Source: a virus (lineage: Duplodnaviria; Caudoviricetes). Taken from it: DNA of 29,285 nt. The DNA lies in IMG/VR virus record IMGVR_UViG_3300037634_007778, positions 1-29,285 of that record; one strand, 5' to 3'. Numbering within the stretch: the first letter of the stretch is position 1; each line of letters starts with the position of its first letter. The notes beneath the pieces are model-generated. The model made no database searches. It had not been told where the DNA came from and was given only the letters and a program-made list of their open reading frames with translations. This document shows, one piece after another, positions 8,413 through 29,285 of the stretch. A program made the translations under genes and the position numbers.

Positions 8413-8428
8413 TTTTTTATTCTTATAA

Positions 8429-12825: not shown

Positions 12826-13197
12826 CTAATCCCCTTTTAGGACTCGATGGCTATCGCTATCAAAATGTTGTGTTGAAAATTCAAACAATTCTGAATCTTC
12901 AAGGGCCACCATCTGGTGGCGTAATCCACGATATACGTGGAAGTTTTCGCCGGCGTTCAAAACAAGCTGTTTCGCTTGTGTAATATCATCGCTGTCTGAA
13001 TAATATATCATCATTTTGCCGGATTGCAAGTAAAATACTTCATCTTTTAATTTGTGAAAGTGCCATGAACACCGTTTTCCTTGCTGAAAAAACAAAAGCT
13101 TGCCACAGTATTCTTCGCAATTTACAACCCATCGTTCCCAACCCCATCCCTTGTCGACATGGTTCATCGGCAAATTTATATTATTATCTAATGGCAT
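12826..13197 (-). CDS. Cupin, mannose-6-phosphate isomerase type II / sugar isomerase-like
   Basis: KGWG-x-[14 protein letters not shown] and GLRHQM cupin metal-binding motifs; overlaps the gmd stop. Confidence 0.8.
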
Positions 13198-14176
13198 CTT
13201 GAATCTCTTTTAGATCGGACTCATACATCATTTCAGCTAGACCCTCAAAGGTTACTTCTGGTTCCCATCCGAGAGCCTTTTTGGCCTTGGACGCGTCCCC
13301 TAACAAATAAGGAACTTCATTGGGCCTAAACAGCCGTGAGTCTATCTCTACATGTTTTTCAACACTTAGGCCAGCGCGCTCGAATACACATTCTAAAAAC
13401 TCTCTTACAGAATGAGTCTCGCCAGTGGCAATGACATAATCATCAGCTTCATCTTGCTGCATCATCATCCACATTAGTCTTACATAGTCACCGGCAAACC
13501 CCCAGTCTCTTTTCGCGTCAAGGTTGCCGAGTGAAAGCTTATCTTGAAGCCCTAATTTAATTCGAGCGGCAGCGAGTGTAATCTTGCGTGTTACGAAGGT
13601 TTCGCCGCGGCGAGGGCTCTCATGATTAAACAGAATGCCGCTCGTTGCAAACATTCCATATCCATCACGATAATTTCTTATCATGTGGTGAGCGTATACT
13701 TTTGCACACGCATAAGGCGATGCAGGTTCTAGAGCGGAATCTTCATTATAAGGTGGGTTAGGATTAACCCCGAACATTTCCGATGAAGAAGCCTGATAAA
13801 ATTTAGCGTTTGGACACAAGTTTCTGGTTGCTTCCAGAAGCCGGAGGGTACCCAGCGCTACGATATTAGTAGTTTCCTCGGGAGTTTCGAAAGATACGCG
13901 AACGTGCGATTGGGCCCCTAAATTATAAATCTCATCTGGTTGGTAATTCAACAATAATCTGTGAATGTTTCCTGAATCAATTAAGTTTCCATATTCCAGT
14001 GTAAAGTTTTGCAATCTTTCGGGATCATCAAAAATGTGATCGATGCGATCTGTAGAAATTAGTGAAGTTCGGCGTTTGACGCCCACTACATGGTAGCCCT
14101 TATCAAGCAATAAGTCTGCTAAATATGAGCCGTCTTGACCTGTGACTCCTGTTACTAACGCTGTCTTTTGTTTCAT
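13184..14176 (-). CDS. gmd: GDP-mannose 4,6-dehydratase
   Basis: [67 protein letters not shown]. Start moved to 14176 (ATGA overlap with fcl stop). Confidence 0.97.
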
Positions 14177-15078
14177 GTGGTTTCCTTGTTTTCTATATAC
14201 CAATCATAAGTTTTCGTAATACCATCTTTAAATTTGGTAAATTTAAAATCTCCAATTAATTCTTTTAATTTATGATTGCTGCCGTCTTTTCTAAACTGTC
14301 CATCTAGTTTGTTATTATACACGATATTAATGTCTTTGTCTACATGAGATAATAAAGTTCGTGCCATTTCGTCGATAGTTAAATTTTCATCAGGCGCAAC
14401 AATAAGAGGTTCAGCACTATAATGCTTCTCTAATAAGAGTGGAATTATCTGGCACAAATCATCTACATATAATTGTTGTCGCATAGGCCGGCCGGTGCCC
14501 CACAACTCTAGCACACCTCCCTCGTTTAAAGTGGCCATTTTTGACACCAGGGCTGCAATAAAATGGGACCGGTCACTGTTAAAGTGATCGCCTGGGCCAT
14601 AAATATTAGAAGGGCTGAAGGTTGAGTAATTTACTCCGTATTGTTTTCTATAAGATAAGATAAGAGTGTGAAGCATTCGTTTTGTAAATCCATAAGCAAA
14701 ATTAGTTTCTGCTGGGGGGCCTTCTAGTAAATCTTTTTCTTTAAAGGGGTATTCTGCGACAACATCTGGGAAGGCGCACGTACTCAAAGAGGCGAGAAGT
14801 CGGTCGACTCCGAAATCATAGGCGGCCTTTATAACATTTAAATTTATAAGCATGTTCTGTTCGAAAAAATCAACTTGATTTTCGCTATTGTCTTTGATCC
14901 CTCCTACTCGCGCTGCTAAATGAATTACTGCGTTTGGTCGAATTTCTTCAAACATCTGCATAGTTTCCACTGAGTCTGTCAAGCAATAATCTGCGGTGGA
15001 TACGTATATCCATTCCGGGTGATAAATTTTTAATCTTTTCCCTAAAAAGCCGCTGCCACCAGTAACTAAAGTTTTCAT
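14173..15078 (-). CDS. fcl: GDP-4-keto-6-deoxy-mannose 3,5-epimerase/4-reductase (GDP-L-fucose synthase-like)
   Basis: [40 protein letters not shown]...[11 protein letters not shown]; adjacent to gmd. Confidence 0.9.
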
Positions 15079-16739
15079 TTTTTAAGATATTCATCAGCAG
15101 CCGGGTGGTGATCGGTGTGCCATCGATGAAGCGTTGAAACATCTTCATCGCGTTGAGCCGAGTATTGGTTTACAAAATCTTCTCGTTGTTCTTCAGGTAA
15201 ATTAGCGAGAATTTGTTGAAGAATCTGTTTTTCTACTTCAAAAGAAATTTTAGGCATTAAATCTTGTGGCTTTCCAGAGAAGAAACAACGAAGCAACCGG
15301 TGAGACATCTCTGGCTTTTGAACTACTTGGGCACTAAGCTGTATTATAAAGGGAAAATTGAATCTCCAGCCATATTTTATTATTGAAGGTAAAAGCTTTC
15401 TTTGTTGCAAAAAACTTTTCGGCTTAAATATTCTAACTAAAGAGATGGCATCTCTCACTTGTTCCTTCCATTCTAAAAGTTGTTCATAAGAATGCTCACA
15501 TTCATAAAATGGAACTTCTCCATCAGTAAGCCAGTAACCATCATCCAATGGCCCGTATCCTTCGACTTGTAGCTCCCGTCGTTTGGCTATATTATAAAGT
15601 TCGGCGCCGGGATAAACTCCACAAACACCGATATCATCATAAAATAAATAATTATTATTTTGCATCTCTTGAACAAAATCAATTGTTTCGTCTATAGTTT
15701 CTTGCGTTTCGCCAGGAAGACCGACAATTAAGAATGCCGTAGTCTTAATGTTGCTTTCAGCAAATAACGAAGTAGCATATCGAATATGGTCCTTCGTGAT
15801 TCCCTTAAACATGCCCTTCATCACTTCATCGGCAGCGGATTCTAAGCCGAATAAAACATGATTAAAGCCCGCCTGTTCCATTCGCTGAACCAATTCGCGT
15901 GATACTGGCCGGAAGCGCGCACTACACGTAAAGGTAGTTTTAATTCCTCGTTTAATAATTTCATCACATAAGGCCATTGTGCGCTTCTTATTAATCATGA
16001 ACGCATCATCATGCAACCAAATAATCTGAATAGTGGGACATATAGCTAGAATTTCTTCGATTTCATCACAAATATTTTCTGCCGTTCTAAAGCGGACACT
16101 TCGCAGTGATACGTTATCCAATACACAAAAATTACACTTAAATGGACATCCACGACTTGTTAATAAATTCGCTACCTGTTTACCTTCAAATAAAAATATA
16201 TCATGCTTGGGGAACGGCAAAATGTCTAAATCGTTTATCAGGGCGCGCTCTTCAGTCTTAACTACTTCTTCTCCATTAAAGTATGCAATCCCCTCTATCT
16301 CACTAACAGGCTTCTTGGCTTCTAGCTGATCTAACAGCGCGTGAAATGTTGTTTCACCTTCTCCAATAACAACTATGGTTTCGGGATACTTTTTTGCAAG
16401 TTGCTCCCACATAATCGTAGGATGGATGCCTCCAAGGACAAGCTTAATATCGGGGTGGTTTTCAATAATGTACTCAACCACCTTAAAAGAACTGATACGA
16501 CTGTGAGTCATTATTGAAATTCCAATAACATCTGGATTAAAAGTCTCGATTTCTTTCTTAATTTTAGTGGTACAAATTTCAATATTGACATTATTTAAAA
16601 AATGTGTTTCAACTTTATGCTCTGAATATTTTTCTAAATACGTATGAAGATATGCTAACCCAAGCGGATAGTGGCTATCGGGCGCATCCTCCAATCTGTG
16701 GGAATCGTCGATGCTGGTGCATGTTAATAATACTTTCAT
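15075..16739 (-). CDS. B12-binding domain radical SAM enzyme (class B methyltransferase-like)
   Basis: YPLGLAYL and LGGIHPT in the N-terminal cobalamin-binding domain; SRGCPFKCNFC CxxxCxxC; FGLES and IVGLPGET. Confidence 0.9.
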   Translation of the reverse strand: MKVLLTCTSIDDSHRLEDAPDSHYPLGLAYLHTYLEKYSEHKVETHFLNNVNIEICTTKIKKEIETFNPDVIGISIMTHSRISSFKVVEYIIENHPDIKLVLGGIHPTIMWEQLAKKYPETIVVIGEGETTFHALLDQLEAKKPVSEIEGIAYFNGEEVVKTEERALINDLDILPFPKHDIFLFEGKQVANLLTSRGCPFKCNFCVLDNVSLRSVRFRTAENICDEIEEILAICPTIQIIWLHDDAFMINKKRTMALCDEIIKRGIKTTFTCSARFRPVSRELVQRMEQAGFNHVLFGLESAADEVMKGMFKGITKDHIRYATSLFAESNIKTTAFLIVGLPGETQETIDETIDFVQEMQNNNYLFYDDIGVCGVYPGAELYNIAKRRELQVEGYGPLDDGYWLTDGEVPFYECEHSYEQLLEWKEQVRDAISLVRIFKPKSFLQQRKLLPSIIKYGWRFNFPFIIQLSAQVVQKPEMSHRLLRCFFSGKPQDLMPKISFEVEKQILQQILANLPEEQREDFVNQYSAQRDEDVSTLHRWHTDHHPAADEYLKK

Positions 16740-16754
16740 TTTTATTTTGTTCCT

Positions 16755-17705
16755 TTACCAAGTAAATTTATTTTTATAATAATTTACGATTTCTTGTATC
16801 TCTTCATCAAAATTCTTTTGTGGTTGCCAGCCAAGATTTTTTAATTTTCTATCATTTAGGGCATATCGAACATCTTGACCTTCTCTAAACGCATTAAACT
16901 CTACATATTGTTTCCAATTTTTATCGGTGCCAAAATATGCTTTAATTATTTTTCTTACAGTTTCAGCGTTTGTTTGTTCAAAGCTGCCGGCAACATTATA
17001 AATTTCATTAATATTGCCAGAATCAATAATTGCTAATACGGCTGCAGCCGTATCATCTGCATGAAGCCAATTGCGGGTGGGGCGCCCCTGATCGTGAAGT
17101 CTGATTTTTTTGCCTCTATTTAAATTTTTAACTGATAGTGGTATGAGTTTTTCGGGATATTGGCCTGGGCCGTAATTATTCGTTGGTCGTAAAATAATAT
17201 ATTTAATATCATAGGTTCTAGCCCATGCATTGATTAACATATCTCCCGCGGCTTTTGCAGCAGAATAGGGATTGCTTGGTTTTAAAATATCTGTTTCGAC
17301 ATGGGCACCATGAGAAATATCGCCATAAACTTCATCAGTGCTAATGTGAAATAAAATAGGCCTTTCGTTACAATTTGTTGGCTTATATCTTATTAAATCT
17401 AAAAGATTTTTAACACCTAGAACATTGCTCTCAATAAACTCATCGCTATTAACAATACTGTTTCCAACATGGGACTCTGCGGCAAAATTTATAATATAGT
17501 CACAGTCGTATAATCGTTTAAGATCTTTAATATCTGTTCTTTCGAATGTAAAATTAGAATAAGTTTGAAATTCTTCTAACAACTCTATATTGGCAGCATA
17601 GGTAATCTTATCTATGCCGCGCACCATGTACCCGCGCTGCAGGGCGCGGCGGGTCGCATGCGATCCCATAAACCCCAAACAACCAGTAATATAAACTATC
17701 TTCAT
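16755..17705 (-). CDS. rfbB: dTDP-glucose 4,6-dehydratase
   Basis: DKITYAA, NFAAESHV, HISTDEVYG, PSNPYSAAKA, NNYGPGQYPEKLIP, RNWLH. Confidence 0.9.
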   Translation of the reverse strand: MKIVYITGCLGFMGSHATRRALQRGYMVRGIDKITYAANIELLEEFQTYSNFTFERTDIKDLKRLYDCDYIINFAAESHVGNSIVNSDEFIESNVLGVKNLLDLIRYKPTNCNERPILFHISTDEVYGDISHGAHVETDILKPSNPYSAAKAAGDMLINAWARTYDIKYIILRPTNNYGPGQYPEKLIPLSVKNLNRGKKIRLHDQGRPTRNWLHADDTAAAVLAIIDSGNINEIYNVAGSFEQTNAETVRKIIKAYFGTDKNWKQYVEFNAFREGQDVRYALNDRKLKNLGWQPQKNFDEEIQEIVNYYKNKFTW

Positions 17706-18799
17706 TCTTCAAGGCCTTGTTCGATAAAAAAATCGCCGCAATCACATTGATTTGTAAAAAAGTCTTTTGTTTCTTGGTTAAACCAGTAGCTTAACCAACG
17801 GTCCAACAATGATTCAAATGTTCTATCATCAAGACCTCCAAATCCATCGGAGTAATGCCACACTTTAATCTGCTCATGGTCTTTAGTATAAAGCTTGTCA
17901 TCTTTTACGTAAAATTCTTTTACAGAATTCCAAGGCTTATGGTGCATGATACCGTAGCCGTCCGCGGCGGCGGAAGCGCGTCCAGGAATAACCTCTCCTT
18001 TTGAGCGATTATTATAAACTACGCTATCTTCACCATAAGGATCATCAACACACTTAATGGTAAAATCAAACATGGGGGTATCTCCCCGGGGAGCGGGGGA
18101 TAAGCACAAGTTAGCCACTATATTAAGGCCGGCCTGATCTGCATAATAATCTACGAGCTTTAGTTCTGATACGGGCATATTACCAAAGGAATGGAGCCAT
18201 TTCCGACACTCATCAGGATGGAAGGTGGGTCCCACAAACGTGGGCTTTTTAAGAATTTCTGCCAACGAATTAGCACAACTCGATGCCATTTTATAATCAG
18301 ACAGTGCTTTGCGGTGCGCTAGCGCGATTTCTATAACTGTCTTAAGAGCGTCAAGATTATTAAAGCATACAACATCTGAATTATAGTTGTAGTAATCTTT
18401 TTTGCCATTGACTAAACGATGTCTAGTTTGGACTATAGCACAGCTGTTGTTCTCTTTATAATAAAGAGGAAAAAGGTGATCTACATTAAGACAGCGAGTG
18501 GTCAGAATGTCTTCGTCATTATCAAGAAATTCACTTAAGCGCGCACATGTTATTGTATCTCCCCCCAAGATAATCATTTTATCATATGCGTGTCTTACCA
18601 TTAGTTCATAAGCTAACATATATTTAAAAATACCTCCACATTCCGGTGCATTGAATGCGCATGCAAATTTAGACCCTTTTACCTCATCAATATGATGCAA
18701 AGGAATATCGGGATGAAATTTTTTAAAACTTTGCCGTGCGCACAAGCCAATCTTCTCAAACCTCTCTCCATAATGATAGATCATACAGCCGACATTCAT
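17702..18799 (-). CDS. Putative GT-A fold (GT8-like) glycosyltransferase
   Basis: Motif order matches GT8: IILGGD(T) at the DxD position, NSDVV (cf. NSGV), DQAGLN (cf. DQDxLN), YN, IKVWHY (cf. IxHY). Confidence 0.5.
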   Translation of the reverse strand: MNVGCMIYHYGERFEKIGLCARQSFKKFHPDIPLHHIDEVKGSKFACAFNAPECGGIFKYMLAYELMVRHAYDKMIILGGDTITCARLSEFLDNDEDILTTRCLNVDHLFPLYYKENNSCAIVQTRHRLVNGKKDYYNYNSDVVCFNNLDALKTVIEIALAHRKALSDYKMASSCANSLAEILKKPTFVGPTFHPDECRKWLHSFGNMPVSELKLVDYYADQAGLNIVANLCLSPAPRGDTPMFDFTIKCVDDPYGEDSVVYNNRSKGEVIPGRASAAADGYGIMHHKPWNSVKEFYVKDDKLYTKDHEQIKVWHYSDGFGGLDDRTFESLLDRWLSYWFNQETKDFFTNQCDCGDFFIEQGLEE

Positions 18800-20148
18800 T
18801 ACTTAATCCCCCTCTCAGCGAAAAATTCATGAATAACTTTTGCAATATAACCCATCTTTTCATCGGTGAGCCCTTTATACGTTCCTAGGAAAAAGGAGTT
18901 GGTAGTTACTAATTGCGCGACGGGGAAAACCTCGTCTAGGTCTCCATATTCGGCTGCCATATGATAATAGCCGGGGTGGGCAAGAATATTCCCTGAGAAG
19001 TAAGAACGAGTTTGAATTTTTGCCTCTTCAAGATGTTCTACAATATCTTGGCGGCTAAATGGTGCGTCTGGTTTAATAGTGAGCACATACGCAAACCAAC
19101 ATGGATCTGCTTTGTCAGTAGCCTTTGGCAGATGAAAGTGTTCCTTATAGGGGGCGAAAATCTCCTCTAGTTTTTGGAAATTTTGTCGACGGGCAGCATC
19201 TAACTCTGGAAGTTTTTCAAGCTGCTGTAGGCCCATTGCGGCCTGTAAATCAAGGGGTTTTAGGTTGTATCCGATCTCGTCAAAAACATAGCGGTGGTCG
19301 TAAATGGCTTCTGGCATGCCCGGAAGCCAGTTTTTAAACCTATTGCCGCATGCGGTGCCGCCTGTGACGTCTCCGGGCTTTGCAGTGTTACAATAACAGG
19401 CGCGGCCCCAGTCGCGCAAGCTAGCTATTATCTTTCTAGTTTTGCAATTCTTCGCAGCCACAAAGCCGCCTTCGCCCATCGTCATGTGGTGGGCGGGAAA
19501 AAACGAACATGTGGACATGTGGCCGAAGGAGCCGAGCTTTTTACCATCGTAAGTTGAGCCCAGTGCGTCACAGCAATCCTCCAAAAAAACAAGATTATAT
19601 CTTTCTACCAAAGACATAAGCCTATCCATGTCGGGAGGGTTACCCAATACATGCGCAAACATAATTGCTTTAATTTCTTTGTTTGTGTCTTCTTCTAAAA
19701 GCTTCTCAACCGCATCTAAGTCTAAATTAAGATCCGGGAGGGTGACGTCAACAAACAACGGCTCAAATCCGTTCTGGATAATAGGGTTGATGGTTGTGGC
19801 AAAGCATACTACGGGAGTTATAATTTTTGAGCCTGCGGGTAAATTAAAAAGCTTTTTGGATTTAAGAGTAGACACCATAAGCAAGTTAGCCGAACTGCCC
19901 GAGTTGGTTAAAACACCAAAGTCTGCTCCCAAATATTGTGGAAATTCTAATTCAAACTTTCTACCATTTTCGCCAAAAATCAACCAACCAGATAACAACT
20001 GTTTAATGGCCGCAATATATTCATCTTCCGTGAAAATTGGACCAGAATAGGAAAGCCAGTCTTCTCCAGGCTTCCACTCAACCTCTTGCTGTTCCGCCAT
20101 ATGCTCCGAAACTAGCTTTAAAATTTCATCTAATTTGTTCGCTTTCAT
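18799..20148 (-). CDS. rfbH: NDP-4-keto-6-deoxy-hexose 3-dehydrase (E1; RfbH/DdhC), PMP and [2Fe-2S] dependent
   Basis: NSGSSANL, EDCCDALG, SFFPAHHMTMGEGG (His where aminotransferases have Lys), RDWGRACYC...C, YDHRY...GYNLK. Confidence 0.93.
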   Translation of the reverse strand: MKANKLDEILKLVSEHMAEQQEVEWKPGEDWLSYSGPIFTEDEYIAAIKQLLSGWLIFGENGRKFELEFPQYLGADFGVLTNSGSSANLLMVSTLKSKKLFNLPAGSKIITPVVCFATTINPIIQNGFEPLFVDVTLPDLNLDLDAVEKLLEEDTNKEIKAIMFAHVLGNPPDMDRLMSLVERYNLVFLEDCCDALGSTYDGKKLGSFGHMSTCSFFPAHHMTMGEGGFVAAKNCKTRKIIASLRDWGRACYCNTAKPGDVTGGTACGNRFKNWLPGMPEAIYDHRYVFDEIGYNLKPLDLQAAMGLQQLEKLPELDAARRQNFQKLEEIFAPYKEHFHLPKATDKADPCWFAYVLTIKPDAPFSRQDIVEHLEEAKIQTRSYFSGNILAHPGYYHMAAEYGDLDEVFPVAQLVTTNSFFLGTYKGLTDEKMGYIAKVIHEFFAERGIK

Positions 20149-20975
20149 TTTTCTATATATCCCTTTATTCCTTTATCCAATCCAAGTAACTCAATATCCA
20201 TTCGGCTTAAGCGTTTTCCGCATCCGGTATATGAACTGGCTAAATGTCTTTCTTGTATTATAACTGGTTTTTTGCTTTCTGTCAAATAAATAATTTTATT
20301 TGCAATATCTGTTAACTTATGTTTTTGCTGGTAACACAGGTTGATATCTCTCGGTATGTTTTTGCTTTGATTGTTGATAATATATTCAATTACGCGGCCC
20401 ACATCTTGAACACAAAAATAGTCCATATATCTATCCTGGTGTATAATTATTGACTGATCGTTTCTTACACATTTAAGGGCTGTCTTTATAAATCTTTGCT
20501 CTGCCTCAAACTCTCCAAAGCAGCCAAATAATCTCAGATTGAAAATCTTTGAATTTAAGTCAGATATTTTCCTACTAATCATGTTCTTTGATAAGCCATA
20601 ATAGTCTTTTGGATAACAATTATAAATCTCGCTTTCCTTGGCAAGTTTAACGCCATCGCTCCGATCAAATTCGGCGCCAGACCCGAAGTTAAACATCATT
20701 ATGTATTTATGCGAAAAATTTAGCAAATTATTAAACATGGATATATTACATAAAAAATCATCAATGTGTTCTTTTTGGTCTCTTTTGCCGCCTTTGATTG
20801 CTGTGTGAATAACAATATCCACATTTTTTGAATTAAAAAAGTTAGAAACTTGTTGCGTATTCGTAATATCTAAGACTTGTCTGTTTGTGTTGTAGATATT
20901 GTGGCTTGAATTTTTAAAATATTGAGACAGCGAACGTCCCATAAAACCATCACACCCAGTAATTAAGATATCCAT
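20145..20975 (-). CDS. Extended SDR NDP-sugar reductase/epimerase
   Basis: ITGCDGFMG, FGSGAEF, YYGLSK (YxxxK), NLRLFGCFG. Confidence 0.85.
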   Translation of the reverse strand: MDILITGCDGFMGRSLSQYFKNSSHNIYNTNRQVLDITNTQQVSNFFNSKNVDIVIHTAIKGGKRDQKEHIDDFLCNISMFNNLLNFSHKYIMMFNFGSGAEFDRSDGVKLAKESEIYNCYPKDYYGLSKNMISRKISDLNSKIFNLRLFGCFGEFEAEQRFIKTALKCVRNDQSIIIHQDRYMDYFCVQDVGRVIEYIINNQSKNIPRDINLCYQQKHKLTDIANKIIYLTESKKPVIIQERHLASSYTGCGKRLSRMDIELLGLDKGIKGYIEK

Positions 20976-21898
20976 TTACTAGATTTTTTAAGTTCATCAA
21001 GTTCGGCCTCTTTAATAGAGTAGGAATATAAGCTGCCAGGAAATGTGCCATCTTGCACATCTCCTACATATTTTTTAATGGCCATTGTGGCTAACATTAA
21101 AAGTCCGTCGCGCCTTTCTTTTCTTCCCAATTTTCGAAGATCTTCAGCAGCGCTTAAATAATTACCAAATTCATTTATTACTTCAGGTATATAACATTTT
21201 GCAAACCAAGGTCTAAATGATTGATAAAATCCCATCAGATCGTGCATAATAACAAGCTGACCGTCAACGGCTCCGCCGGCGCCTATTCCGTAAATTGGAA
21301 TTTCTAATTGCTGTGCGATCTGTGCTGCTGGCTCGGCCGGCATCGCTTCTAGCAAAATAGCAAATGCGCCAGCGGTTTGAAGGGCTAATGCATCTTCTAA
21401 GGTTTTTTCAAAGCTTTCTATTGTTTTCCCTTGAACCTTGTAGCCTCCAAAAGTTGTTGTGCTCTGTGGTGTTAGACCCAGGTGTCCAATTACCGGAATT
21501 CCTGCATCTACTATTGCTCGAACACGGCTTGCGACTCTCACTCCCCCCTCTAACTTAATTGCGTCTGATGCGGCCTCTTTTACAAAGCGTAGTGCGTTTC
21601 TAACAGCATCTTCATCGCACACCTCGTAAGAGCCTTGAGGCATATCTCCTACAATAAAAGTATTGGGGGCACCGCGGCGAGCGGAAGAAGCCATAAAAAT
21701 CATTTCCTCCATTGTAACAGGGTTGGTTGTATCATATCCAAGTTGGACCATCCCGCCGGAATCGCCTACCAAAATCATATCTATGCCGGCATCCTCTGCT
21801 ACTTGTGCAAAAGGTAAGTCATATGCTGTAATCCAAGTTAATGGGGTGCTGCTTCGCTTCATGGATATAAAATCCAAAATTGTCTTTTTAGTTGTCAC
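20963..21898 (-). CDS. panB: PanB-like 2-oxoacid hydroxymethyltransferase (divergent)
   Basis: TAYD, LVGDS, GDMP, KLEGG, GHLGLTPQS, LLE, GIGAG, DGQ...HD all present; GTG start with AAGGAG SD; 311 aa, longer than typical PanB. Confidence 0.9.
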   Translation of the reverse strand: MTTKKTILDFISMKRSSTPLTWITAYDLPFAQVAEDAGIDMILVGDSGGMVQLGYDTTNPVTMEEMIFMASSARRGAPNTFIVGDMPQGSYEVCDEDAVRNALRFVKEAASDAIKLEGGVRVASRVRAIVDAGIPVIGHLGLTPQSTTTFGGYKVQGKTIESFEKTLEDALALQTAGAFAILLEAMPAEPAAQIAQQLEIPIYGIGAGGAVDGQLVIMHDLMGFYQSFRPWFAKCYIPEVINEFGNYLSAAEDLRKLGRKERRDGLLMLATMAIKKYVGDVQDGTFPGSLYSYSIKEAELDELKKSSKWIS

Positions 21899-21930
21899 TA
21901 TCTTCTCCTTCGTTTAGTGGTACTATTGTT

Positions 21931-21959
21931 ATATTAACACGAAATTCTTCTCTTGTCAA
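21931..21959 (-). promoter_or_regulatory. Candidate sigma70 promoter upstream of panB
   Basis: TTGACA (21959-21954), 17 nt spacer ending TGT, then TAATAT (21936-21931): perfect -35 and extended -10. Confidence 0.5.
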
Positions 21960-21968
21960 ATAAGGAAA
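21949..21968. repeat. 20-bp exact direct repeat, copy 1 (TCTCTTGTCAAATAAGGAAA)
   Basis: Identical to 22933-22952; the pair flanks the SDR gene at 21976-22890. Confidence 0.95.
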
Positions 21969-21975
21969 TATCTTG

Positions 21976-22890
21976 TCATTTGACAACATTATTCTCTCCT
22001 CTTAAAAATTCTATTGTCTGCTGTAAGCCTGTTGTTATATCTGTTGATGGCGACCAATCTACTGCGGTGCGTATTTTATCATTTGCGCCACAAATATAAT
22101 TTGAAAAATTATCTCTATCTAAAGCGTGGTCAAAAAGAATTGAAGACGTAGAATGGCTTAGTTCTTGGATCGTCTCTACAATCTCTTTGATACGATATAC
22201 ACTTCCCGCACATACATTAAAAATGCCTTCCAACTGTCCTTCGATCAATTTATATACCCCTTCTACAAAATCTGTAATATAGATGTAGTCTACACAAGAT
22301 TTACATGAATTTAAAGTGAAATTATCATTTTTAAGACACCCTCTAATCGTCTTGGGTACCAAACGCGATTCAACATCATTTTTTCCGTAAACATATGAAG
22401 GTCTCACCCACAACCATTTAAAACCGTGTTGTGTACAAATCTGCTTAGAATACATATTTAATGCATATTTAGAAATTCCATATAAACTTTGCGGTGAGGC
22501 GGATGTTTCTTCTTTTACTTTAAAATTTTTTATCCCATATTCGGACATACTTCCTATACCCACGAAAGACACGTCTTTTAATTCACTTAAAATTTTTAAT
22601 AAATTGATACTGTGGGTAACATTATCAAATTGTTTTAAATCATTAGTATTTTTATAAGCGTTTCCACCATCCCAGGCACAATGTATCACTATCTCTGGCG
22701 CAAATGAAATAATTCTATCTTTGATAGTGTGAAAATCTTTTAGCCTCATACTATCAAATTGAATATTTTTAAACTTTTTTAAATTATGATCATGAACTGA
22801 GAGCGCATAAATATTATGATTATTCTTCAGAAACTTTTCTAATAGGTTGCTTCCCAAAAACCCATTGGCGCCAGTAATGAGAACGTTCAT
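21976..22890 (-). CDS. Extended SDR NDP-sugar reductase/epimerase (4-reductase-like)
   Basis: ITGANGFLG, IHCAW, GSMSEYG, YGISK, WVRPSYVYG, DYIYITD. Confidence 0.88.
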   Translation of the reverse strand: MNVLITGANGFLGSNLLEKFLKNNHNIYALSVHDHNLKKFKNIQFDSMRLKDFHTIKDRIISFAPEIVIHCAWDGGNAYKNTNDLKQFDNVTHSINLLKILSELKDVSFVGIGSMSEYGIKNFKVKEETSASPQSLYGISKYALNMYSKQICTQHGFKWLWVRPSYVYGKNDVESRLVPKTIRGCLKNDNFTLNSCKSCVDYIYITDFVEGVYKLIEGQLEGIFNVCAGSVYRIKEIVETIQELSHSTSSILFDHALDRDNFSNYICGANDKIRTAVDWSPSTDITTGLQQTIEFLRGENNVVK

Positions 22891-24671
22891 TCTTCCTCTA
22901 TCGGCTTTACATACATATTGGCATAAAACTCCTCTCTTGTCAAATAAGGAAACATATCTTCTAAAGGCTTTGAAACCATGCTTCCATCATCTAGTTTTTG
23001 AGCAGCCAATATTGGTAAAATCTCATCCCATTTTTTACACGACACCTCGCATATTGCTGGTCCTTCAAAATCAAAAACTTGTGACAAGTCTTTATCAAGA
23101 TCTGTATTATCCGCAAATAGGAAATATTTTATACCATAGGCATCTGCTATCTTTTTAGTTTCGGGGAACGAAACTCCATCGTTCTTATCGGTACCAATAA
23201 ACCGATCTTCAAAATACTTTCTTTGTGTTGCTCGTATCGACAAATAACCATCATTATTCAAAACAAACAACTTAATTGGCAAATTATATTGTACAATAGT
23301 TTGTAGTTCCTGTATATTAGTTTGAAACGAGCCATCACCGGTGATGCCTATTGCCTCGCCTCTGTCTTTAGCAAAACTAACCCCTATACACCCTGGAATA
23401 GTAAAGCCCATTTCAGCCTGCGCTCCGGGAATAATGTGTCTCTGCTCTTTATCAAGTTGAAGTGCTTGAGAAGAAACATAATATGCCGAGCCGGCATCGC
23501 TAACAACGGCCGAATCGTGTCGCAAATATTCTGATAGTTTTTTTATAAAATAATATAAACTTATTCCTCCTTCGTCATTTACATGTTCTGGCAAAAATAC
23601 TGGCCATTTTTGTTTCCACTCTAAAGTTTTAGCGGGCCAAAAATTATCACACTTAAAGTCTAAATCTAATTTGTTAAGAAAGTCTTTTGCGTCCATGTGT
23701 AAGAACAGATCGATTTTAACAGTATCTTTTTTATGTTCTTCTGGGTCTATATCAACAACAACCAATTTGGCTCCCCTTGCAAAAAATTCATATTTATATC
23801 CTATCGTTGGCACACCCAAACGTGTTCCGACAGATAGCAACAAATCAGAATTCTGCATTGTAAAATTAGCTGCTCGGTTTCCTTTAATCCCAGTCCTGCC
23901 TATATTCAAAGGATGAGAAGTGGGTAGTAAGTCTGCCCCTAAAAATGTTGTCACTACAGGAATATTATATTGTTCAGCAAACTGTTGTAGGTTTTTTGAA
24001 GCATTGGCCAACCTGACCCCATTTCCGGCTAAAATAACCGGTCTTTTAGAGGTCTTTAATAATTTTTTAAAAGGCTCTAGATCGGCGTTAATTCCTGGTA
24101 TGGTTTCTTCGAATCTCTCTAGTTCGTGGGGAGATATAAAAGATCCCTGGACATCCAGAGGAACATCAATCCATACTGGGCCTTTTCTACCCGTGTTGGC
24201 TAAATGAATTGCTTTATCAAAATGATAAGCTATTTTTTGTGGATCATTGACCATTATAGCATATTTGGTTATTGGTTTGACAAGTTCTATAATATTAGCT
24301 TCTTGTACGCCAAATTGTCTTAATTTGAATTTTGAATTGTAGCATGTTTGGGCTTTGTTGACTTGTCCAGAAATAAAAATGCAAGGTAAATTGTCTTGCC
24401 ATGCATCTAGGAGTCCCGTAATACAATTTGTGCTTCCACACCCAGTGGTTGGCATTGTAACTGCAAATCCATTAGTATACTTTGCATATGCGACAGCAGC
24501 CATTGACGAAGCCTGTTCGTGATGATTACAAACAGCCTTTAATTTATTATGTTTAGCAATACCGTCATTTAAAAACATTGCTCCGCCACCTGTAAGGGTG
24601 AATACATGTTTTACTCCTAACTGTGATATTCGTTCCGCGATATAATCAACTACTCGAACTTGCTTACTCAT
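22887..24671 (-). CDS. ThDP-dependent acetolactate-synthase-like carboligase (YerE-like sugar-branching enzyme)
   Basis: GGGAMFLND, HHEQA catalytic Glu, RPVILAGNG, GDGSFQ...NNDGY ThDP motif; in an NDP-sugar cluster with RfbH and without ilvH/ilvC/ilvD. Confidence 0.88.
   Translation of the reverse strand: MSKQVRVVDYIAERISQLGVKHVFTLTGGGAMFLNDGIAKHNKLKAVCNHHEQASSMAAVAYAKYTNGFAVTMPTTGCGSTNCITGLLDAWQDNLPCIFISGQVNKAQTCYNSKFKLRQFGVQEANIIELVKPITKYAIMVNDPQKIAYHFDKAIHLANTGRKGPVWIDVPLDVQGSFISPHELERFEETIPGINADLEPFKKLLKTSKRPVILAGNGVRLANASKNLQQFAEQYNIPVVTTFLGADLLPTSHPLNIGRTGIKGNRAANFTMQNSDLLLSVGTRLGVPTIGYKYEFFARGAKLVVVDIDPEEHKKDTVKIDLFLHMDAKDFLNKLDLDFKCDNFWPAKTLEWKQKWPVFLPEHVNDEGGISLYYFIKKLSEYLRHDSAVVSDAGSAYYVSSQALQLDKEQRHIIPGAQAEMGFTIPGCIGVSFAKDRGEAIGITGDGSFQTNIQELQTIVQYNLPIKLFVLNNDGYLSIRATQRKYFEDRFIGTDKNDGVSFPETKKIADAYGIKYFLFADNTDLDKDLSQVFDFEGPAICEVSCKKWDEILPILAAQKLDDGSMVSKPLEDMFPYLTREEFYANMYVKPIEEE
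22933..22952. repeat. 20-bp exact direct repeat, copy 2 (inside the 3' end of the ThDP gene)
   Basis: Identical to 21949-21968. Confidence 0.95.
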
Positions 24672-25395
24672 GGGCCCACCTCTCTTTCCAATATTGTTTA
24701 ATTTTAACGTCTATTTGGGAAAAATCTCTTTGCATTCCCCACGTTGACTGTGTAGAATGCCATCTATAAAAATATCCTATCCATTTTGGATAAGGATAGA
24801 TGAACAGTCCTTTATCGGCTATATTAAAATATAAGTCGTAATCGGCTGCTCCCAAGTACTCTTTAGAATTCCACCGAACGATGCCTTTATCATATAATTC
24901 CTTCTTATACACCATGCTTGGAGTGTTTACGGGACATCTTTGAAATAAAAGCTTTTTAAAATCGTCTAAGTTGGTGTAAATATGTTTTGTTTCGCCTAAA
25001 AACTCTTCCTGGGCGCCTCTGACTCCTATTATTGGTGTTTGTAATATTTTTATTTTATCTGGGGCCGCTGATATTATTTTTACTATATTGTCAACGTAAT
25101 CGCTTTGTATATAATCATCTGCTCCTAAAATTGTAAAATACTCGCCAGTAGCCTCGTTTAATGCTTTGTTCACAGGCTCTTCCCAAGAATGCTTATATAA
25201 ATTTGGGGTTGTGAGTACTTTAAAATCTTGACCATCTCTCTGCATCTCTTTAGCGATTTGATAGCTGTTATCTAGACTTTCGTTGTCAACAAAAATAATC
25301 TCTATATTTTGATATGTTTGTGCGAGAGCTGATTGAATGCTTTCTGATATCCATTGTTCGGCGTTATAGCAGGGTATAATTATTGTAATTTTCAT
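24664..25395 (-). CDS. Glycosyltransferase family 2
   Basis: IIIPCYN, FVDNESLD, GEYFTILGADD, ADYDL. Confidence 0.92.
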   Translation of the reverse strand: MKITIIIPCYNAEQWISESIQSALAQTYQNIEIIFVDNESLDNSYQIAKEMQRDGQDFKVLTTPNLYKHSWEEPVNKALNEATGEYFTILGADDYIQSDYVDNIVKIISAAPDKIKILQTPIIGVRGAQEEFLGETKHIYTNLDDFKKLLFQRCPVNTPSMVYKKELYDKGIVRWNSKEYLGAADYDLYFNIADKGLFIYPYPKWIGYFYRWHSTQSTWGMQRDFSQIDVKIKQYWKERWAHE

Positions 25396-25416
25396 ATTTT
25401 TATCATGATAAACAAA

Positions 25417-26337
25417 TCATAATTCTAAAAGTTGTTGAACTCGGTTAGTATAGCAATGGTTTTCTAAAATATCTTGACGATTCTTCTCGCGAATATCAGT
25501 CAACTCTTGTTCTGTTAAAGATAGGTAATTTTGTGTTATTTCTACAAGACCTTTGGCGTCTAGCGACGTAGGTAAGTCTGGGAATAAGCGGTTCAACTGT
25601 CCTACAGTATCCGATACTAATATTCCATTGAGTCCCAAAGATTTGAAAGTTCGCTCGTTGGTATCATTGCCTAGGATGCGTTGGTATGCGTCGTGAATGT
25701 TTAGTGTTAATCGACTATTATATAGAAGGGCACACTCTTGTTCATGGGTTAAATTCTTTTCCACAAAGAATCCACATTTTAAATCTGTTTTCATGAATTC
25801 AGAAAATATTTCAATCATGATTGGTCTTTTTTCATTAAATCCATTATTGGCCCAACCTCCAATAAAGCAAATATCATATTGTTTATAATTATCGTCTGTG
25901 GCCGGCTGATAGCCAATGTGATCAAAGGCCAGTGGAACCGTATGGACCTCTTTCCATTTCACATGACGAGATACATCGTCCCCAAACGTCCATAAGTGTA
26001 CATGATCCATTTGGTTTAACACATCTACTAGCCCATCGCTAGCTAGACATCTAAAATTAGGGTGATGTCCCCATGGGGAGGGAAACTGATTAGGTTGTGC
26101 AAAAATAAAGGCTTTTTTGCTTCGCTCTATTAAGCCAATCTCCTCCGGTTGAGGATCCGCATCTACAAACATCACCATATATTCTTCATTGGAGTCTCGT
26201 TGTTCATGTATCGCTTCAATTTCTTCGATCTTGTTTACAGGGTATACATCGTACCCTAGGGCATGCCATGCTTTTTGATATCCTTTGTATATCCAATGTC
26301 CCGCATGCCGAGGATAATCAATCACATAGATTCTCAT
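25417..26337 (-). CDS. GT-B glycosyltransferase, CgeB/Glyco_trans_1_2-like
   Basis: YDICFIGG, LNIH...NERTF, C-terminal ILENHCYTNRVQQLL. Confidence 0.8.
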   Translation of the reverse strand: MRIYVIDYPRHAGHWIYKGYQKAWHALGYDVYPVNKIEEIEAIHEQRDSNEEYMVMFVDADPQPEEIGLIERSKKAFIFAQPNQFPSPWGHHPNFRCLASDGLVDVLNQMDHVHLWTFGDDVSRHVKWKEVHTVPLAFDHIGYQPATDDNYKQYDICFIGGWANNGFNEKRPIMIEIFSEFMKTDLKCGFFVEKNLTHEQECALLYNSRLTLNIHDAYQRILGNDTNERTFKSLGLNGILVSDTVGQLNRLFPDLPTSLDAKGLVEITQNYLSLTEQELTDIREKNRQDILENHCYTNRVQQLLEL

Positions 26338-27245
26338 GATAGCTCCTTTATCTTTTCTAAAGTGTGCGCCAGTCGTATTTTAGAATCGTGTTCTGCTAAA
26401 AATCTCTTGTGACCATTGGTAGCAATTTTTTCCACTAAAGATGGGTTTTTTAAAAAAAATTGAGCTTTGGCAACGAACTCCTCTGTTGATTCAAAAGTGA
26501 TTATTTCCTTATCGATCTCAAAAAATTCCTCCAAGCCTATGTGGTTTTGGGTGAAGAGGAGGCCTCCTCCAGCGGTAATTTCAAATAGTCTTTGTTTCAT
26601 TTGAGTCTTGCCTTCAGGATCGTTAGCATTAAAGCTTAAATTAAGTCCAATCTGTGATCGGCAGTGAGTTTCAAACAATTCTTCCTGAGTTAGTCCAAAC
26701 GCTTGAGTAACGTCCACATGCGGTGTAATAGTATTAAAAAAAGCCTCCCGAGATGCATTCGGAGCGCCAATAAAAGATATATCGATATTTTTATCCAAAA
26801 AAGGCGTCACTGGATAAAAATCTGAATTGGCATGCCAATTGCCCAATAAAATATTATTATAACCAATGTTCTTATATTTGTCTATATATGAAATTTCGGG
26901 GGTAGAACACATAGTAAAATAAGAACAAGCGATACTGGAGAACCTATCGAATCGCCAAGTGTCGTCGCAAAACCAGTTAAAAGTTACGGTGCGGCCAGTG
27001 TCGGTCTCTCTTTTGATGCTTCCCCAAGGCTCATATGGTGTGATACGCCCGTCACCAGTAACACAACAAAATATCAAATCAGGTTTAAACTTTTCAATAA
27101 TTTTGTCATAATCTTTTTCTTTTGGATCCACCGTGTCATACCAATATACTTGATGCCCTAATTCTTTTAAAGGCAAATACACATACCAGTGTCCCGTATC
27201 TGGAAAGCCTCTATATGTCTTGTTAGTTGTGAGAAGGATTTTCAT
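26334..27245 (-). CDS. GT-B glycosyltransferase, CgeB/Glyco_trans_1_2-like
   Basis: WFCDD, DISFIG, QMKQRLFEITAGGG, FEIDKEI, KIATNGHKRFLAEH...RL. Confidence 0.88.
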   Translation of the reverse strand: MKILLTTNKTYRGFPDTGHWYVYLPLKELGHQVYWYDTVDPKEKDYDKIIEKFKPDLIFCCVTGDGRITPYEPWGSIKRETDTGRTVTFNWFCDDTWRFDRFSSIACSYFTMCSTPEISYIDKYKNIGYNNILLGNWHANSDFYPVTPFLDKNIDISFIGAPNASREAFFNTITPHVDVTQAFGLTQEELFETHCRSQIGLNLSFNANDPEGKTQMKQRLFEITAGGGLLFTQNHIGLEEFFEIDKEIITFESTEEFVAKAQFFLKNPSLVEKIATNGHKRFLAEHDSKIRLAHTLEKIKELS

Positions 27246-28081
27246 GAAAATATGTTTATAATCTTAGTGGTTATTTCTTGTCTTTTTTCTCTCATTATTT
27301 TAATGAGATCTGGGCCCTTGAGAGAGAACCATGGTTCCTTTGTTGCTCCAATGTTATTATTAGCTATAATACCAAGCCCCATCATGCGCGCTTCTACCAC
27401 GATACGTGATAAGGTTTCGGGCGTTTTAGGTAAAAAAATAAATTTTGTGTTTTGGCCAAGTCTTTCTAAAAATTCATTATAGTCGCACGGATAAATTAAG
27501 TCAATAGCATTTTTTTTTGCATTGCAATATTGAATAGCTTCTTCTGTATTCTTGTGCCAATTTTGGGATACCATGATGGCGCATTTATCAAATTTTTCTT
27601 TTTTTGAAACTTCAGTCATCAAATCAAGACTGTCTATAGACCATAAATTTCCACCAACATTGGTTATGTTATCTAAATTTAAATTTCTTTTAACTATGGA
27701 TTCATGAAAGTTGCTTTGACATACTATGGCCAACGCATTTCTATAAAAATCATAATTTACTAATTCTTCTTTTGGTGCAGTGTAGTTTGGGTAATCTGCT
27801 GGGTTTCTAGTCCGGACGTATTTGTGATCATGCTCGTAGATTATATATTTTTTCTTCTTTTGTAAGCTTTGTTTACATTCTTCTGACAACTGAATAAAAT
27901 TTGCGACTATAAAGTTTGCATCTGTGTTCTTGTTCAGAAAATCAGGTGTAACTTGTGTGCTCTTTATTTTTATTACATTATGATCTTTTTTTAATAACTT
28001 ATAAAGTTCTTCGTTATTTAGCTCGCCGCCGCCTGATATTTCATTTGCAAAAAAATCAGCAATAATTATATACTCACTCAT
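27242..28081 (-). CDS. Putative GT-B (GT4-like) glycosyltransferase
   Basis: N-terminal GGGEL, YEHD, FLPKTPETLSRIVVEARMMG (ExxxxxxxE-type motif). Confidence 0.7.
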   Translation of the reverse strand: MSEYIIIADFFANEISGGGELNNEELYKLLKKDHNVIKIKSTQVTPDFLNKNTDANFIVANFIQLSEECKQSLQKKKKYIIYEHDHKYVRTRNPADYPNYTAPKEELVNYDFYRNALAIVCQSNFHESIVKRNLNLDNITNVGGNLWSIDSLDLMTEVSKKEKFDKCAIMVSQNWHKNTEEAIQYCNAKKNAIDLIYPCDYNEFLERLGQNTKFIFLPKTPETLSRIVVEARMMGLGIIANNNIGATKEPWFSLKGPDLIKIMREKRQEITTKIINIFS

Positions 28082-29285
28082 GCTCTTCTATATCTAAAGA
28101 GTCTAACCAAAGTTCAACATCAAATTCATCTTTAAATCCCGGAGTCGATAGAATTAATTCAATAAATCTTTCGTACATCTTCTCTTGGTCCAACCTTTCA
28201 TGAATTATTTCTGCATAGTGGTCGGCATTGCCGGCGTAGCTATCTTCATTGTTAGAAGTAACGTCTTCATAGCATTGACGCATTTTTTCTTTTGCAGATT
28301 GCTCACGAGGGTATGCCCACATAGATTCTTTTATTAATACACCATCCCAGACAACCTGCGGTTGAATGTGATTTAAATCAAAATTAACATTATAAAACTG
28401 CTCTCGACCTTCTTCATCAATAAGATAGTCTAACTGACCGGACCAGCCCGTCGCAACCACAGGAATTCCTGAATATACCGCTTCAAAAATGGGAAGACCG
28501 AAACCTTCGCCATGCGCCAGACTCATAAAAGCTGATATCTTGGGGTGTTTGTATAAAGAGTGCATTTCTTCATCAGTCATATCGCCATGCAAAAGATAAA
28601 CTTTGCACTTTCGATCTGGTGCGGTATTTTCTAGGTATGTGCGCAAATCATTGAATGTGTGTTCTCTATCCATATGACAATTTTTTGCCAGATTCCCTTT
28701 AAGAACTAATCCTACCTCTTCGTCCTTAAATTCTTCCAAAAACCATTTAATAGTATTATTAACATTCTTCCGGGGGCTAATCTGTGCTGCAACCAAAAAG
28801 TTAAAATCATATTCTAAATCAAGATCTAATTCTGCCAGATTATCAAATTTTTTAGTGGGATAATTAATAAATTCAATTGGCTTTTGAAGAGACAAGTGGC
28901 GCTTTTCCTCCGGATTTTGAGGATTTGTGACGTCATAATGCGTATTTTTATATACATCTTTCGAGTGACTAGAAATTGTAATAATATTATCTATCACCTC
29001 GTTGGCCTTAGTAAGCCATTCGTGAGCCACTCTGTTGGTCTCAATACCGGCCGTATAGCCAATATTAATGGGGGCGATTCGCTCCCATTCATTGGGGATT
29101 GTGACCTGAAATGAAACATCAAACTGGCCCCCTTGCTGAATGTACCCTATTGTTTTCTCTATTGTATAATCGATCCACTCCCTTTCTTCGTCTTTCCCGC
29201 TAATCCAAGAAGTTTGTCCCCACTTTAGAGGTTGGATATATATATCAAACAAATCCTCTCGTGATCTTAGAGCGCGGAGGGCGTA
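28074..29285 (-). CDS. GT4-family glycosyltransferase (5' end outside the window)
   Basis: RKN, HGEGFGLPIFEAVYSGIPVVATGWSG. The frame stays open past the track's TTG to the window edge (YALRALRSREDLFD...). Confidence 0.9.
   Translation of the reverse strand, partial: YALRALRSREDLFDIYIQPLKWGQTSWISGKDEEREWIDYTIEKTIGYIQQGGQFDVSFQVTIPNEWERIAPINIGYTAGIETNRVAHEWLTKANEVIDNIITISSHSKDVYKNTHYDVTNPQNPEEKRHLSLQKPIEFINYPTKKFDNLAELDLDLEYDFNFLVAAQISPRKNVNNTIKWFLEEFKDEEVGLVLKGNLAKNCHMDREHTFNDLRTYLENTAPDRKCKVYLLHGDMTDEEMHSLYKHPKISAFMSLAHGEGFGLPIFEAVYSGIPVVATGWSGQLDYLIDEEGREQFYNVNFDLNHIQPQVVWDGVLIKESMWAYPREQSAKEKMRQCYEDVTSNNEDSYAGNADHYAEIIHERLDQEKMYERFIELILSTPGFKDEFDVELWLDSLDIEEHE

Follow-up and report, generated by a model that had tools for sequence, protein, structure and literature searches.

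Known routes to acyl-branched sugars and the viral locus

The closest described counterparts of the locus studied here are the pathways to erwiniose (Pectobacterium atrosepticum ErwI/ErwJ, ErwE and ErwF), caryophyllose and gastriose, brought together in a "unifying scheme" in which a C-C bond-forming enzyme makes a gamma-hydroxy-2-oxoacid (PMC9306805; this and the other papers cited are used for those portions of their text that were available). We analysed a gene cluster in the virus record IMGVR_UViG_3300037634_007778 (Duplodnaviria; Caudoviricetes), whose entire 29,285 bases are called the window below. The window shares with the scheme genes for a 3,6-dideoxy-4-keto sugar, a YerE-like thiamine diphosphate (ThDP)-dependent enzyme and a reductase in one cluster, as well as a neighbouring, predicted C-C bond enzyme (Table 1). 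It differs in the family of this last enzyme. No DmpG or HpcH is encoded in the window, and the slot of the adjacent pyruvate aldolase is occupied by a predicted class II aldolase of the PanB family. Further differences are a predicted C3 branch, an RfbB-like dehydratase and the fact that the cluster is carried by a phage. We conclude that PanB very probably supplies the donor of the ThDP enzyme, and we moderately favour 4-hydroxy-2-oxobutanoate (HOB) as that donor.

An earlier note on this DNA, made from the sequence alone, had presented the cluster as its best candidate for an undescribed system. Its logic is not new, as YerE-like enzymes whose gamma-hydroxy-2-oxoacid donors are made by aldolases were described in 2022 (PMC9306805); the donor enzyme and the predicted product do look new. 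Neither PanB nor a hydroxymethyltransferase is named in the available portions of the main text and supplement of that paper. We found no paper joining PanB to an acyl-branched sugar pathway, in a search with most subscription journals outside its coverage.

The yersiniose A pathway (DdhABCD, YerE, YerF) resembles the window in its E1-type RfbH with His220 and cysteine motifs, its ThDP carboligase and its short-chain dehydrogenase/reductase (SDR). In contrast to that pathway, the window has no CDP-glucose synthase, CDP-type dehydratase or E3 reductase, has an additional donor enzyme, and encodes a ThDP enzyme nearer to JanthE.

A separate PanB branch with a remodelled pocket

The PanB-like protein has the fold of ketopantoate hydroxymethyltransferase (KPHMT, PanB). 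Structure 1M3U is the top fold match of its AlphaFold model (predicted local distance difference test score 92; template modelling (TM) score 0.92 by target), and its sequence passes the family cut-offs (TIGR00222, 291 bits for a cut-off of 207.55; NF001452, 304 bits for 272). In E. coli PanB, we take D45, D84 and E114 to be the metal ligands and E181 the catalytic base; they correspond to D46, D85, E117 and E184 of the window protein, which also retains K115 and H139. The differences from KPHMT are a position on a separate branch, a 27-residue C-terminal insertion (42 residues vs 15), a distinctive residue triplet, and a gene never found adjoining panC.

We aligned 198 distinct PanB sequences, comprising lineages A (33, the lineage of the window protein), B (75) and C (9), the single locus L042 and 80 ordinary PanBs. 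The ordinary background was drawn from two genome samples, one of them Bacillota-centred, together with Actinomycetota loci and second copies. Lineages A, B and C are 42-53% identical among themselves and 37-44% identical to ordinary PanBs (about 43% for the window protein). Together with L042 they form one branch with 99% local support (FastTree, 68 rows sampled from the 198). A convergent origin of the pocket described below is ruled out by this single branch. We also looked for a sugar-linked clade within lineage A and found none, linked and stand-alone copies being mixed on the tree. An apparent ThDP-PanB fusion of 924 aa (L006) contains a stretch of N and was rejected as two adjacent genes.

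Among 232 alignment columns, just three are fixed in the 117 members of lineages A, B and C yet nearly absent from the 80 others. They correspond to L182, L215 and I217 of the window protein, equivalent to V179, I212 and V214 of E. coli PanB. The triplet is Leu/Leu/Ile (L/L/I) in 117/117 subfamily members, vs Val/Val-or-Ile/Val in 78/80 ordinary PanBs (VVV 69, VIV 9, TVV 1, LVV 1). V179 presumably lines the PanB pocket. The E. coli substitutions I212A and V214G make the site larger (PMC7610986), so that L/L/I would be expected to shrink it. An acid smaller than the usual 2-oxoisovalerate should then fit, and removal of both methyls of 2-oxoisovalerate gives pyruvate.

The same residues bear on the idea that PanB performs its textbook reaction on host 2-oxoisovalerate and that the ThDP enzyme takes the resulting ketopantoate as its donor, leading to a 3-hydroxy-2,2-dimethylpropanoyl branch. 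All catalytic residues are kept, the hidden Markov model scores exceed the PanB cut-offs, and ketopantoate is itself a gamma-hydroxy-2-oxoacid. Against it stand the larger pocket residues of the whole subfamily and the absence of any transaminase co-occurring with PanB that could provide 2-oxoisovalerate. Moreover, a quaternary carbon adjoining the ThDP-bound carbon makes a hindered donor. We regard this explanation as highly unlikely.

A change of substrate of another kind has somewhat better prospects, although we still think it unlikely: PanB may hydroxymethylate 2-oxobutanoate, giving a 3-hydroxy-2-methylpropanoyl branch, or, as a tetrahydrofolate (THF)-free class II aldolase, couple pyruvate with a larger aldehyde. 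Wild-type KPHMT has promiscuous class II aldolase activity and accepts many nucleophiles and aldehydes (PMC7610986, PMC7611260), JanthE takes 2-oxobutanoate well, and the pocket change implies a substrate smaller than 2-oxoisovalerate without naming it. On the other hand, V214I should narrow the electrophile side, since V214G widens it (PMC7610986), and no aldehyde-making gene adjoins PanB, unlike in DmpF/DmpG loci. Pyruvate is the nucleophile in every published cluster of the unifying scheme.

PanB and the ThDP enzyme are linked, and the donor slot is exchangeable

All three viral loci nearest to the window PanB contain a ThDP enzyme, two of them in the order ThDP-PanB-SDR-RfbH-RfbB. A search started from the ThDP enzyme added three loci, all of them with PanBs that belong to a different lineage and are about 45% identical. 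For this second lineage, 80 viral loci were taken (the best of 90 matches). The ThDP gene lies within about 2 kb of PanB in 78 of them, and the contigs of the two exceptions end 52 and 809 bases past PanB. Conversely, among 73 viral loci that contain a complete ThDP gene, 53 have PanB (74 loci were retrieved out of the best 80 of 331 matches), as do 13 of 72 metagenome loci (75 retrieved). Many viral loci are near-copies, so that these counts are not independent events and a tree is the better measure. On a tree of 123 thinned ThDP sequences, the presence of PanB changes at least 9 times.

We then classified the neighbours of 174 distinct ThDP enzymes, PanB being sought within 3.5 kb. PanB alone was found beside 105 and another candidate supplier beside 46, with no case of both, although the way the loci were fetched enriched this count for PanB and weakens it as support for our interpretation. 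Seven had nothing recognised and 16 lay at contig edges. The other candidates counted were an HpcH-type or HMGL/DmpG-type aldolase, an acetaldehyde dehydrogenase, a class I/II transaminase or a DJ-1 gene; two tentative HpcH labels depend on L168, itself without a Pfam match. The locus L348 has the core genes of the window (GT2 glycosyltransferase, ThDP enzyme, SDR, RfbH, RfbB, radical S-adenosylmethionine (SAM) protein and 365-aa open reading frame (ORF)) in their order, with HpcH instead of PanB.

A class I/II transaminase stands directly upstream of the same ThDP clade, replacing PanB, in L218 (3820-4992) and in 11 other metagenome loci. All its NCBIfam matches are below cut-off; it may convert an amino acid such as homoserine to the donor. 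A set of genes for a DJ-1/PfpI protein, a cupin and a small hydrolase-like protein, sometimes with Ldh_2, recurs beside viral ThDP enzymes lacking PanB (L145, 7761-10385; L172, L181, L197-L199, L202 and L203), the cupin being fused to the ThDP enzyme in L181. This set is possibly another donor route.

The exchange in the donor slot bears on a further explanation, in which the ThDP enzyme uses pyruvate, as for yersiniose, and PanB either extends the acetyl branch later or serves some separate acyl modification. Pyruvate is accepted by JanthE, to which the ThDP enzyme is closest among solved structures (PMC12188165). One PanB (L010) lies in a glycan cluster that is free of a ThDP gene over 10 kb upstream and 2 kb downstream. 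Yet PanB and the other donor suppliers are mutually exclusive, and the order "aldolase first" was shown for ErwE (PMC9306805). In addition, PanB retains an intact metal site for 2-oxoacid binding, and an acetyl-sugar has no carboxylate. We therefore give this explanation little credence. The earlier note had offered branch extension after transfer as one of two options; we disfavour it on the grounds of the intact 2-oxoacid/metal site and of the erwiniose precedent, where ErwE refuses pyruvate (PMC9306805).

The genes could also be read as auxiliary metabolic genes, with an acetolactate synthase and PanB raising branched-chain amino acid and pantothenate synthesis in the host. Their top NCBIfam names are acetohydroxyacid synthase (AHAS) and PanB. 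A precedent for such a reading is the "acetolactate synthase" of prasinoviruses, which a review assigns to valine, leucine and isoleucine synthesis (PMC5371798). Another paper places the OtV5 protein under sugar manipulation (PMC2386258). In that virus, the ThDP gene 037f stands among epimerase, aminotransferase-family and 4,6-dehydratase genes (041r, 042f and 043f; PMC2386258, PMC5371798), and in our set the loci L122-L132, one of them from a giant-virus metagenome-assembled genome (MAG), combine a prasinovirus-like layout with an L/L/I PanB. Several facts oppose the auxiliary role: the ThDP enzyme falls below the AHAS cut-off and is much nearer to JanthE, two complete virus relatives of the window (G002, G003) have matches to neither PanC nor ketol-acid reductoisomerase (KARI), RfbH-like genes (above 250 bits) occur in 43 of 45 comparable PanB+ThDP clusters, and the PanB pocket is remodelled. 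A vitamin role of PanB is disfavoured by two tests, its pocket residues and the search for panC in the genome or operon, although a host could supply PanC. Of all the explanations considered, we see this one as the most remote.

Among cultured phages and plasmids (12 and 653 records, respectively), all PanB matches are below 60% identity, the best listed being 40-47%. The cultured-phage ThDP matches are 26-32% identical among the matches listed (58 records), and plasmids gave no ThDP match at 1e-90. The MaAM05 record carries an ordinary panB together with panC.

The ThDP enzyme

The ThDP enzyme keeps E52 and a GDG...NN motif. It scores 349 bits for the AHAS equivalog, below the cut-off of 538, and has no regulatory subunit. 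Among solved structures, the highest score is that to JanthE of Janthinobacterium sp. HH01 (8RPH, 437 bits), vs about 230 bits for plant AHAS and 251 bits for 5AHK, which we take to be a YerE. The enzyme is thus nearer to YerE/JanthE than to AHAS. The corresponding motif of JanthE is CDG. JanthE accepts ketones as acceptors and long or hydroxylated donors (PMC12188165), and its natural substrates are stated to be unknown. By analogy with JanthE and from the gene context, the acceptor of the window enzyme would be a ketone or a nucleoside diphosphate (NDP)-4-keto sugar, and we predict that the enzyme attaches an acyl group to C4 of the keto-sugar as a branch.

Proposed pathway

The gene identities, the intact active sites, the linkage, the exchange in the donor slot and the pocket signature are direct observations. 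From them we infer all substrates and the sugar product, as follows. The RfbB-like enzyme would convert host dTDP- or UDP-glucose to a 4-keto-6-deoxy sugar, from which RfbH, receiving electrons from a host reductase, would strip the 3-OH to give an NDP-4-keto-3,6-dideoxyhexose. PanB would join one carbon, from methylene-THF or formaldehyde, to pyruvate and thereby produce HOB. The ThDP enzyme would decarboxylate HOB and put a 3-hydroxypropanoyl group on C4, and the 276-aa SDR would reduce this acyl group to a 1,3-dihydroxypropyl branch. The predicted product is a 4-C-(1,3-dihydroxypropyl)-3,6-dideoxyhexose, whose C3 branch would stand between those of yersiniose (C2) and erwiniose (C4). Phage glycosyltransferases might finally transfer the sugar to a target such as a virion protein, the host surface or DNA.

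The chemistry has precedents. ErwE converts HOB (33%) and refuses pyruvate, and MyGE and MMAR_2332 also accept HOB in vitro (PMC9306805). In an engineered pathway, HOB is made by a homoserine transaminase and split by a side activity of E. coli PanB into pyruvate and a THF-bound one-carbon unit (review PMC6966089). The PanB reaction that links pyruvate and HOB has until now been regarded as a side activity, with HOB as a "non-natural" metabolite. A transaminase could thus replace PanB because a homoserine transaminase would make the same acid. In the earlier note, the ThDP donor was a 2-oxoacid hydroxymethylated by PanB, and this idea is supported by the gene linkage, by the aldolases and transaminases found in the same slot and by the pocket signature. 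Of its two examples, we disfavour ketopantoate, in view of pocket residues that are larger rather than smaller.

If the pathway is correct, PanB would be a fourth kind of donor enzyme and the product would provide the missing C3 branch in the series of acyl-branched sugars. The three-residue rule could separate sugar-type from vitamin-type PanBs; viral auxiliary genes annotated as "pantothenate" or "acetolactate synthase" genes would be corrected by it. The enzyme would also be a natural candidate for making HOB out of pyruvate and a C1 unit, a reaction sought in synthetic one-carbon assimilation. A broader proposal can be made tentatively, at rather less than even confidence. The L/L/I subfamily might be a natural pyruvate hydroxymethyltransferase (HOB synthase) that feeds an undescribed C3-branched, nine-carbon dideoxysugar in many aquatic phages, giant viruses and some bacteria, and that is interchangeable with a homoserine-using transaminase. 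Viral "panB" and "acetolactate synthase" genes would then mostly be glycan genes, and the stand-alone copies of Acidobacteria and other bacteria would have a second, C1-handling use.

Bacterial members of the subfamily

Several observations weigh against HOB synthesis for a branched sugar, and the bacterial members of lineage A, hereafter long PanBs, provide the first of them. A ThDP gene lies within 2.5 kb in just 6 of 23 bacterial loci (L006, L008, L011, L012, L016 and L044). Of the remainder, one has a ThDP gene at a distance of 7.5 kb, two belong to a glycan cluster with no such gene in view, and 14 are located apart from sugar genes, which also speaks for the auxiliary-gene explanation. 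Two MAGs (G010 and G019, both incomplete) have panC, yet the only PanB found in them is the long, L/L/I type. The long PanB may still make ketopantoate there, as the explanation with ketopantoate as donor would have it. The ThDP enzymes are no more decisive: on the tree, those adjoining PanB mingle with those adjoining transaminases or HpcH, so that their sequence does not reveal the donor, and pyruvate and many other donors are used by JanthE (PMC12188165). As for the pocket, the L/L/I signature is one inherited event rather than a convergence, and residue size by itself cannot separate pyruvate from 2-oxobutanoate. Finally, no E3 reductase, ferredoxin (Fer2) or nucleotidyltransferase (NTP_transferase) was found in five virus records, two of them complete; electrons and nucleotide sugar would have to come from the host.

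Conversely, 10 of the 23 bacterial genomes hold a second, ordinary panB, which is beside panC in 8, while the long copy is beside panC in none. This favours a non-vitamin role for the long PanB. Eleven of the 23 genomes show neither panC nor another PanB, all but one being draft MAGs whose completeness is not stated. The earlier note had named, as evidence against its proposal, a PanB nesting with housekeeping PanBs and homologues without links to sugar clusters. The first did not occur, as the subfamily forms a separate branch; for the second the picture is mixed, given the 14 bacterial copies outside such clusters.

Ten Acidobacteria loci carry a stand-alone L/L/I PanB (L004, L007, L009, L014, L015, L017, L021-L023 and L047); in six of the genomes, an ordinary panB adjoining panC is present as well. 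In three phyla, a gene of about 420 aa lies directly upstream of a stand-alone L/L/I PanB (L018, 8598-9854; L019, 8671-9915; L020, 8663-9934). It gave no Pfam or NCBIfam match and no convincing Atlas match.

The gene chain and the other sugar genes

Table 1. Features of the sugar gene chain of the window, in the order in which the minus strand is read.
Feature	Position	Strand	Evidence or remark
Five glycosyltransferase-like genes	24664..29252	-	GT2, two Glyco_trans_1_2, one unassigned, one GT4; may use the sugar
ThDP-dependent carboligase, JanthE/YerE-like, 594 aa	22887..24671	-	Pfam TPP N/M/C
Extended SDR, 304 aa	21976..22890	-	GxxGxxG, YxxxK
Relic of ThDP-gene 3' end, intergenic, directly before PanB	21899..21975	-	41-base direct repeat
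PanB-like hydroxymethyltransferase/class II aldolase, lineage A, 311 aa	20963..21898	-	PF02548, 312 bits
SDR, 276 aa	20145..20975	-	GxxGxxG, YxxxK; relatives in 40/45 comparable PanB+ThDP clusters
RfbH/DdhC (E1)-type 3-dehydrase	18799..20148	-	NF011936, 460 bits (cut-off 423)
GT-A/GT8-like glycosyltransferase candidate, 365 aa	17702..18799	-	Atlas only; unnamed in the earlier note
RfbB/RmlB-like NDP-glucose 4,6-dehydratase	16755..17705	-	TIGR01181, 301 bits (cut-off 365); TDE, YxxxK
B12-binding radical SAM protein	15075..16739	-	Pfam B12-binding and Radical_SAM; CxxxCxxC at 198
Cupin, Gmd and Fcl-like	12826..15078	-	TIGR01472 above cut-off; NF047922, 189 bits, below cut-off

The glycan genes form a single run on the minus strand from 29252 to 12826. 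Five glycosyltransferase-like genes are followed by those for the ThDP enzyme, an SDR, the PanB-like protein, a second SDR, RfbH, the 365-aa ORF and the RfbB-like dehydratase, after which the run continues with the B12 radical SAM protein, an Fcl-like protein, Gmd and a cupin. The eight genes between 15075 and 24671 indeed make the one chain of overlapping or nearly abutting ORFs that had been reported before, with spacings of -13 to +15 bases and one exception, 77 bases between the 304-aa SDR and PanB. The layout is not an assembly artefact, because contigs X12 and X13 from other marine runs span both the PanB-gap-SDR and the SDR-ThDP junctions. The claim that panC/D/E and ilvC/D/H are missing from the window also holds, as the 26 minus-strand ORFs scanned gave zero family matches. 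This absence alone shows little, because the record is only 16% complete. In the related virus records G001-G003, two of which are complete, PanC gave no match either, and KARI was not found in any of the five virus records.

The 276-aa SDR is likely a side-chain ketoreductase of the YerF/ErwF type, a function suggested by its position. RfbH matches 3BCX (E1) with 342 bits vs 181 bits for the ColD type, and has H220 at the position of the pyridoxal phosphate-lysine. Its cysteines C192, C193, C251, C253 and C267 are present, and we take such cysteines to be ligands of a 2Fe-2S cluster. An LdpA-like 4Fe-4S protein occurs in other viral RfbH clusters, mostly beside HpcH (L165, 6450-7607; L166, L169, L170 and L174); it is a possible electron donor of RfbH and is absent from the window. 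In one bacterial locus (L008), a flavin-reductase-like gene adjoins PanB. The RfbB-like dehydratase scores 88 bits for the CDP-type family TIGR02622 (cut-off 278), and all 10 of its solved matches are named dTDP-glucose 4,6-dehydratases. By its sequence, this enzyme is predicted to be of the dTDP or UDP type, not the CDP type. The 365-aa ORF has no Pfam, NCBIfam or PHROG match. Its Atlas feature score is 0.97, with a TM score of 0.56-0.78 to a cluster where 11% carry PF01501, so that its designation as a GT-A-like glycosyltransferase is a lead only.

Within the module proposed in the earlier note, RfbH and the 276-aa SDR are tied to PanB. Two further proteins, the B12 radical SAM protein and the 304-aa SDR, were rejected as core parts, as they occur in 0/45 and 3/45 of the comparable clusters. 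For the radical SAM protein, the zero refers to copies of at least 40% identity, and three of its four close viral relatives lie away from sugar genes. It is not core, and is either a passenger or an optional tailoring methylase outside the PanB module. In L345-L347 (7001-8725), relatives 64-67% identical to it stand alone among non-sugar phage genes.

The 304-aa SDR is absent from L001 and L002, and no close viral relative of it was found. It is flanked by a 41-base direct repeat (21931-21971 and 22915-22955, 83% alike). The intergenic stretch before PanB is the only real gap of the chain, and one of its frames resembles the C-terminus of the ThDP enzyme, so that this SDR sits between two ThDP ends. 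The relic is a trace of recombination in the cassette, and the SDR, a predicted reductase, is likely a later insertion and not core. The window ThDP enzyme is nearest to partners of lineage-B PanBs, whereas the window PanB belongs to lineage A. This mismatch and the relic indicate a mosaic cassette, with a single position that is taken by PanBs sharing 50% identity. A sigma-70-like site at 21959-21931 was not used, being one of 82 matches vs 56 in shuffled sequences.

The five glycosyltransferase-like genes at the start of the run fall outside the region delimited in the earlier note. Three of them have relatives of 42-53% identity just upstream of the ThDP gene in L001, L002 and L049. At the other end, the cupin, Gmd and Fcl-like genes likely constitute a separate GDP-deoxysugar route. 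A second sugar module is found in the nearest relatives, L001 and L002 (15952-19728), with an epimerase, a split E1/transketolase-type ThDP pair, a second pyridoxal phosphate enzyme and an SDR.

The listed holders of the record are marine or seawater metagenomes (20 rows, 17 studies), with no RNA dataset among them. Baseplate genes are located at its left end (1-1786). Between them and an M23 peptidase gene, positions 1822-8472 encode a 2216-aa protein without a family, whose gene contains a 15-base tandem repeat at 6825-6874.

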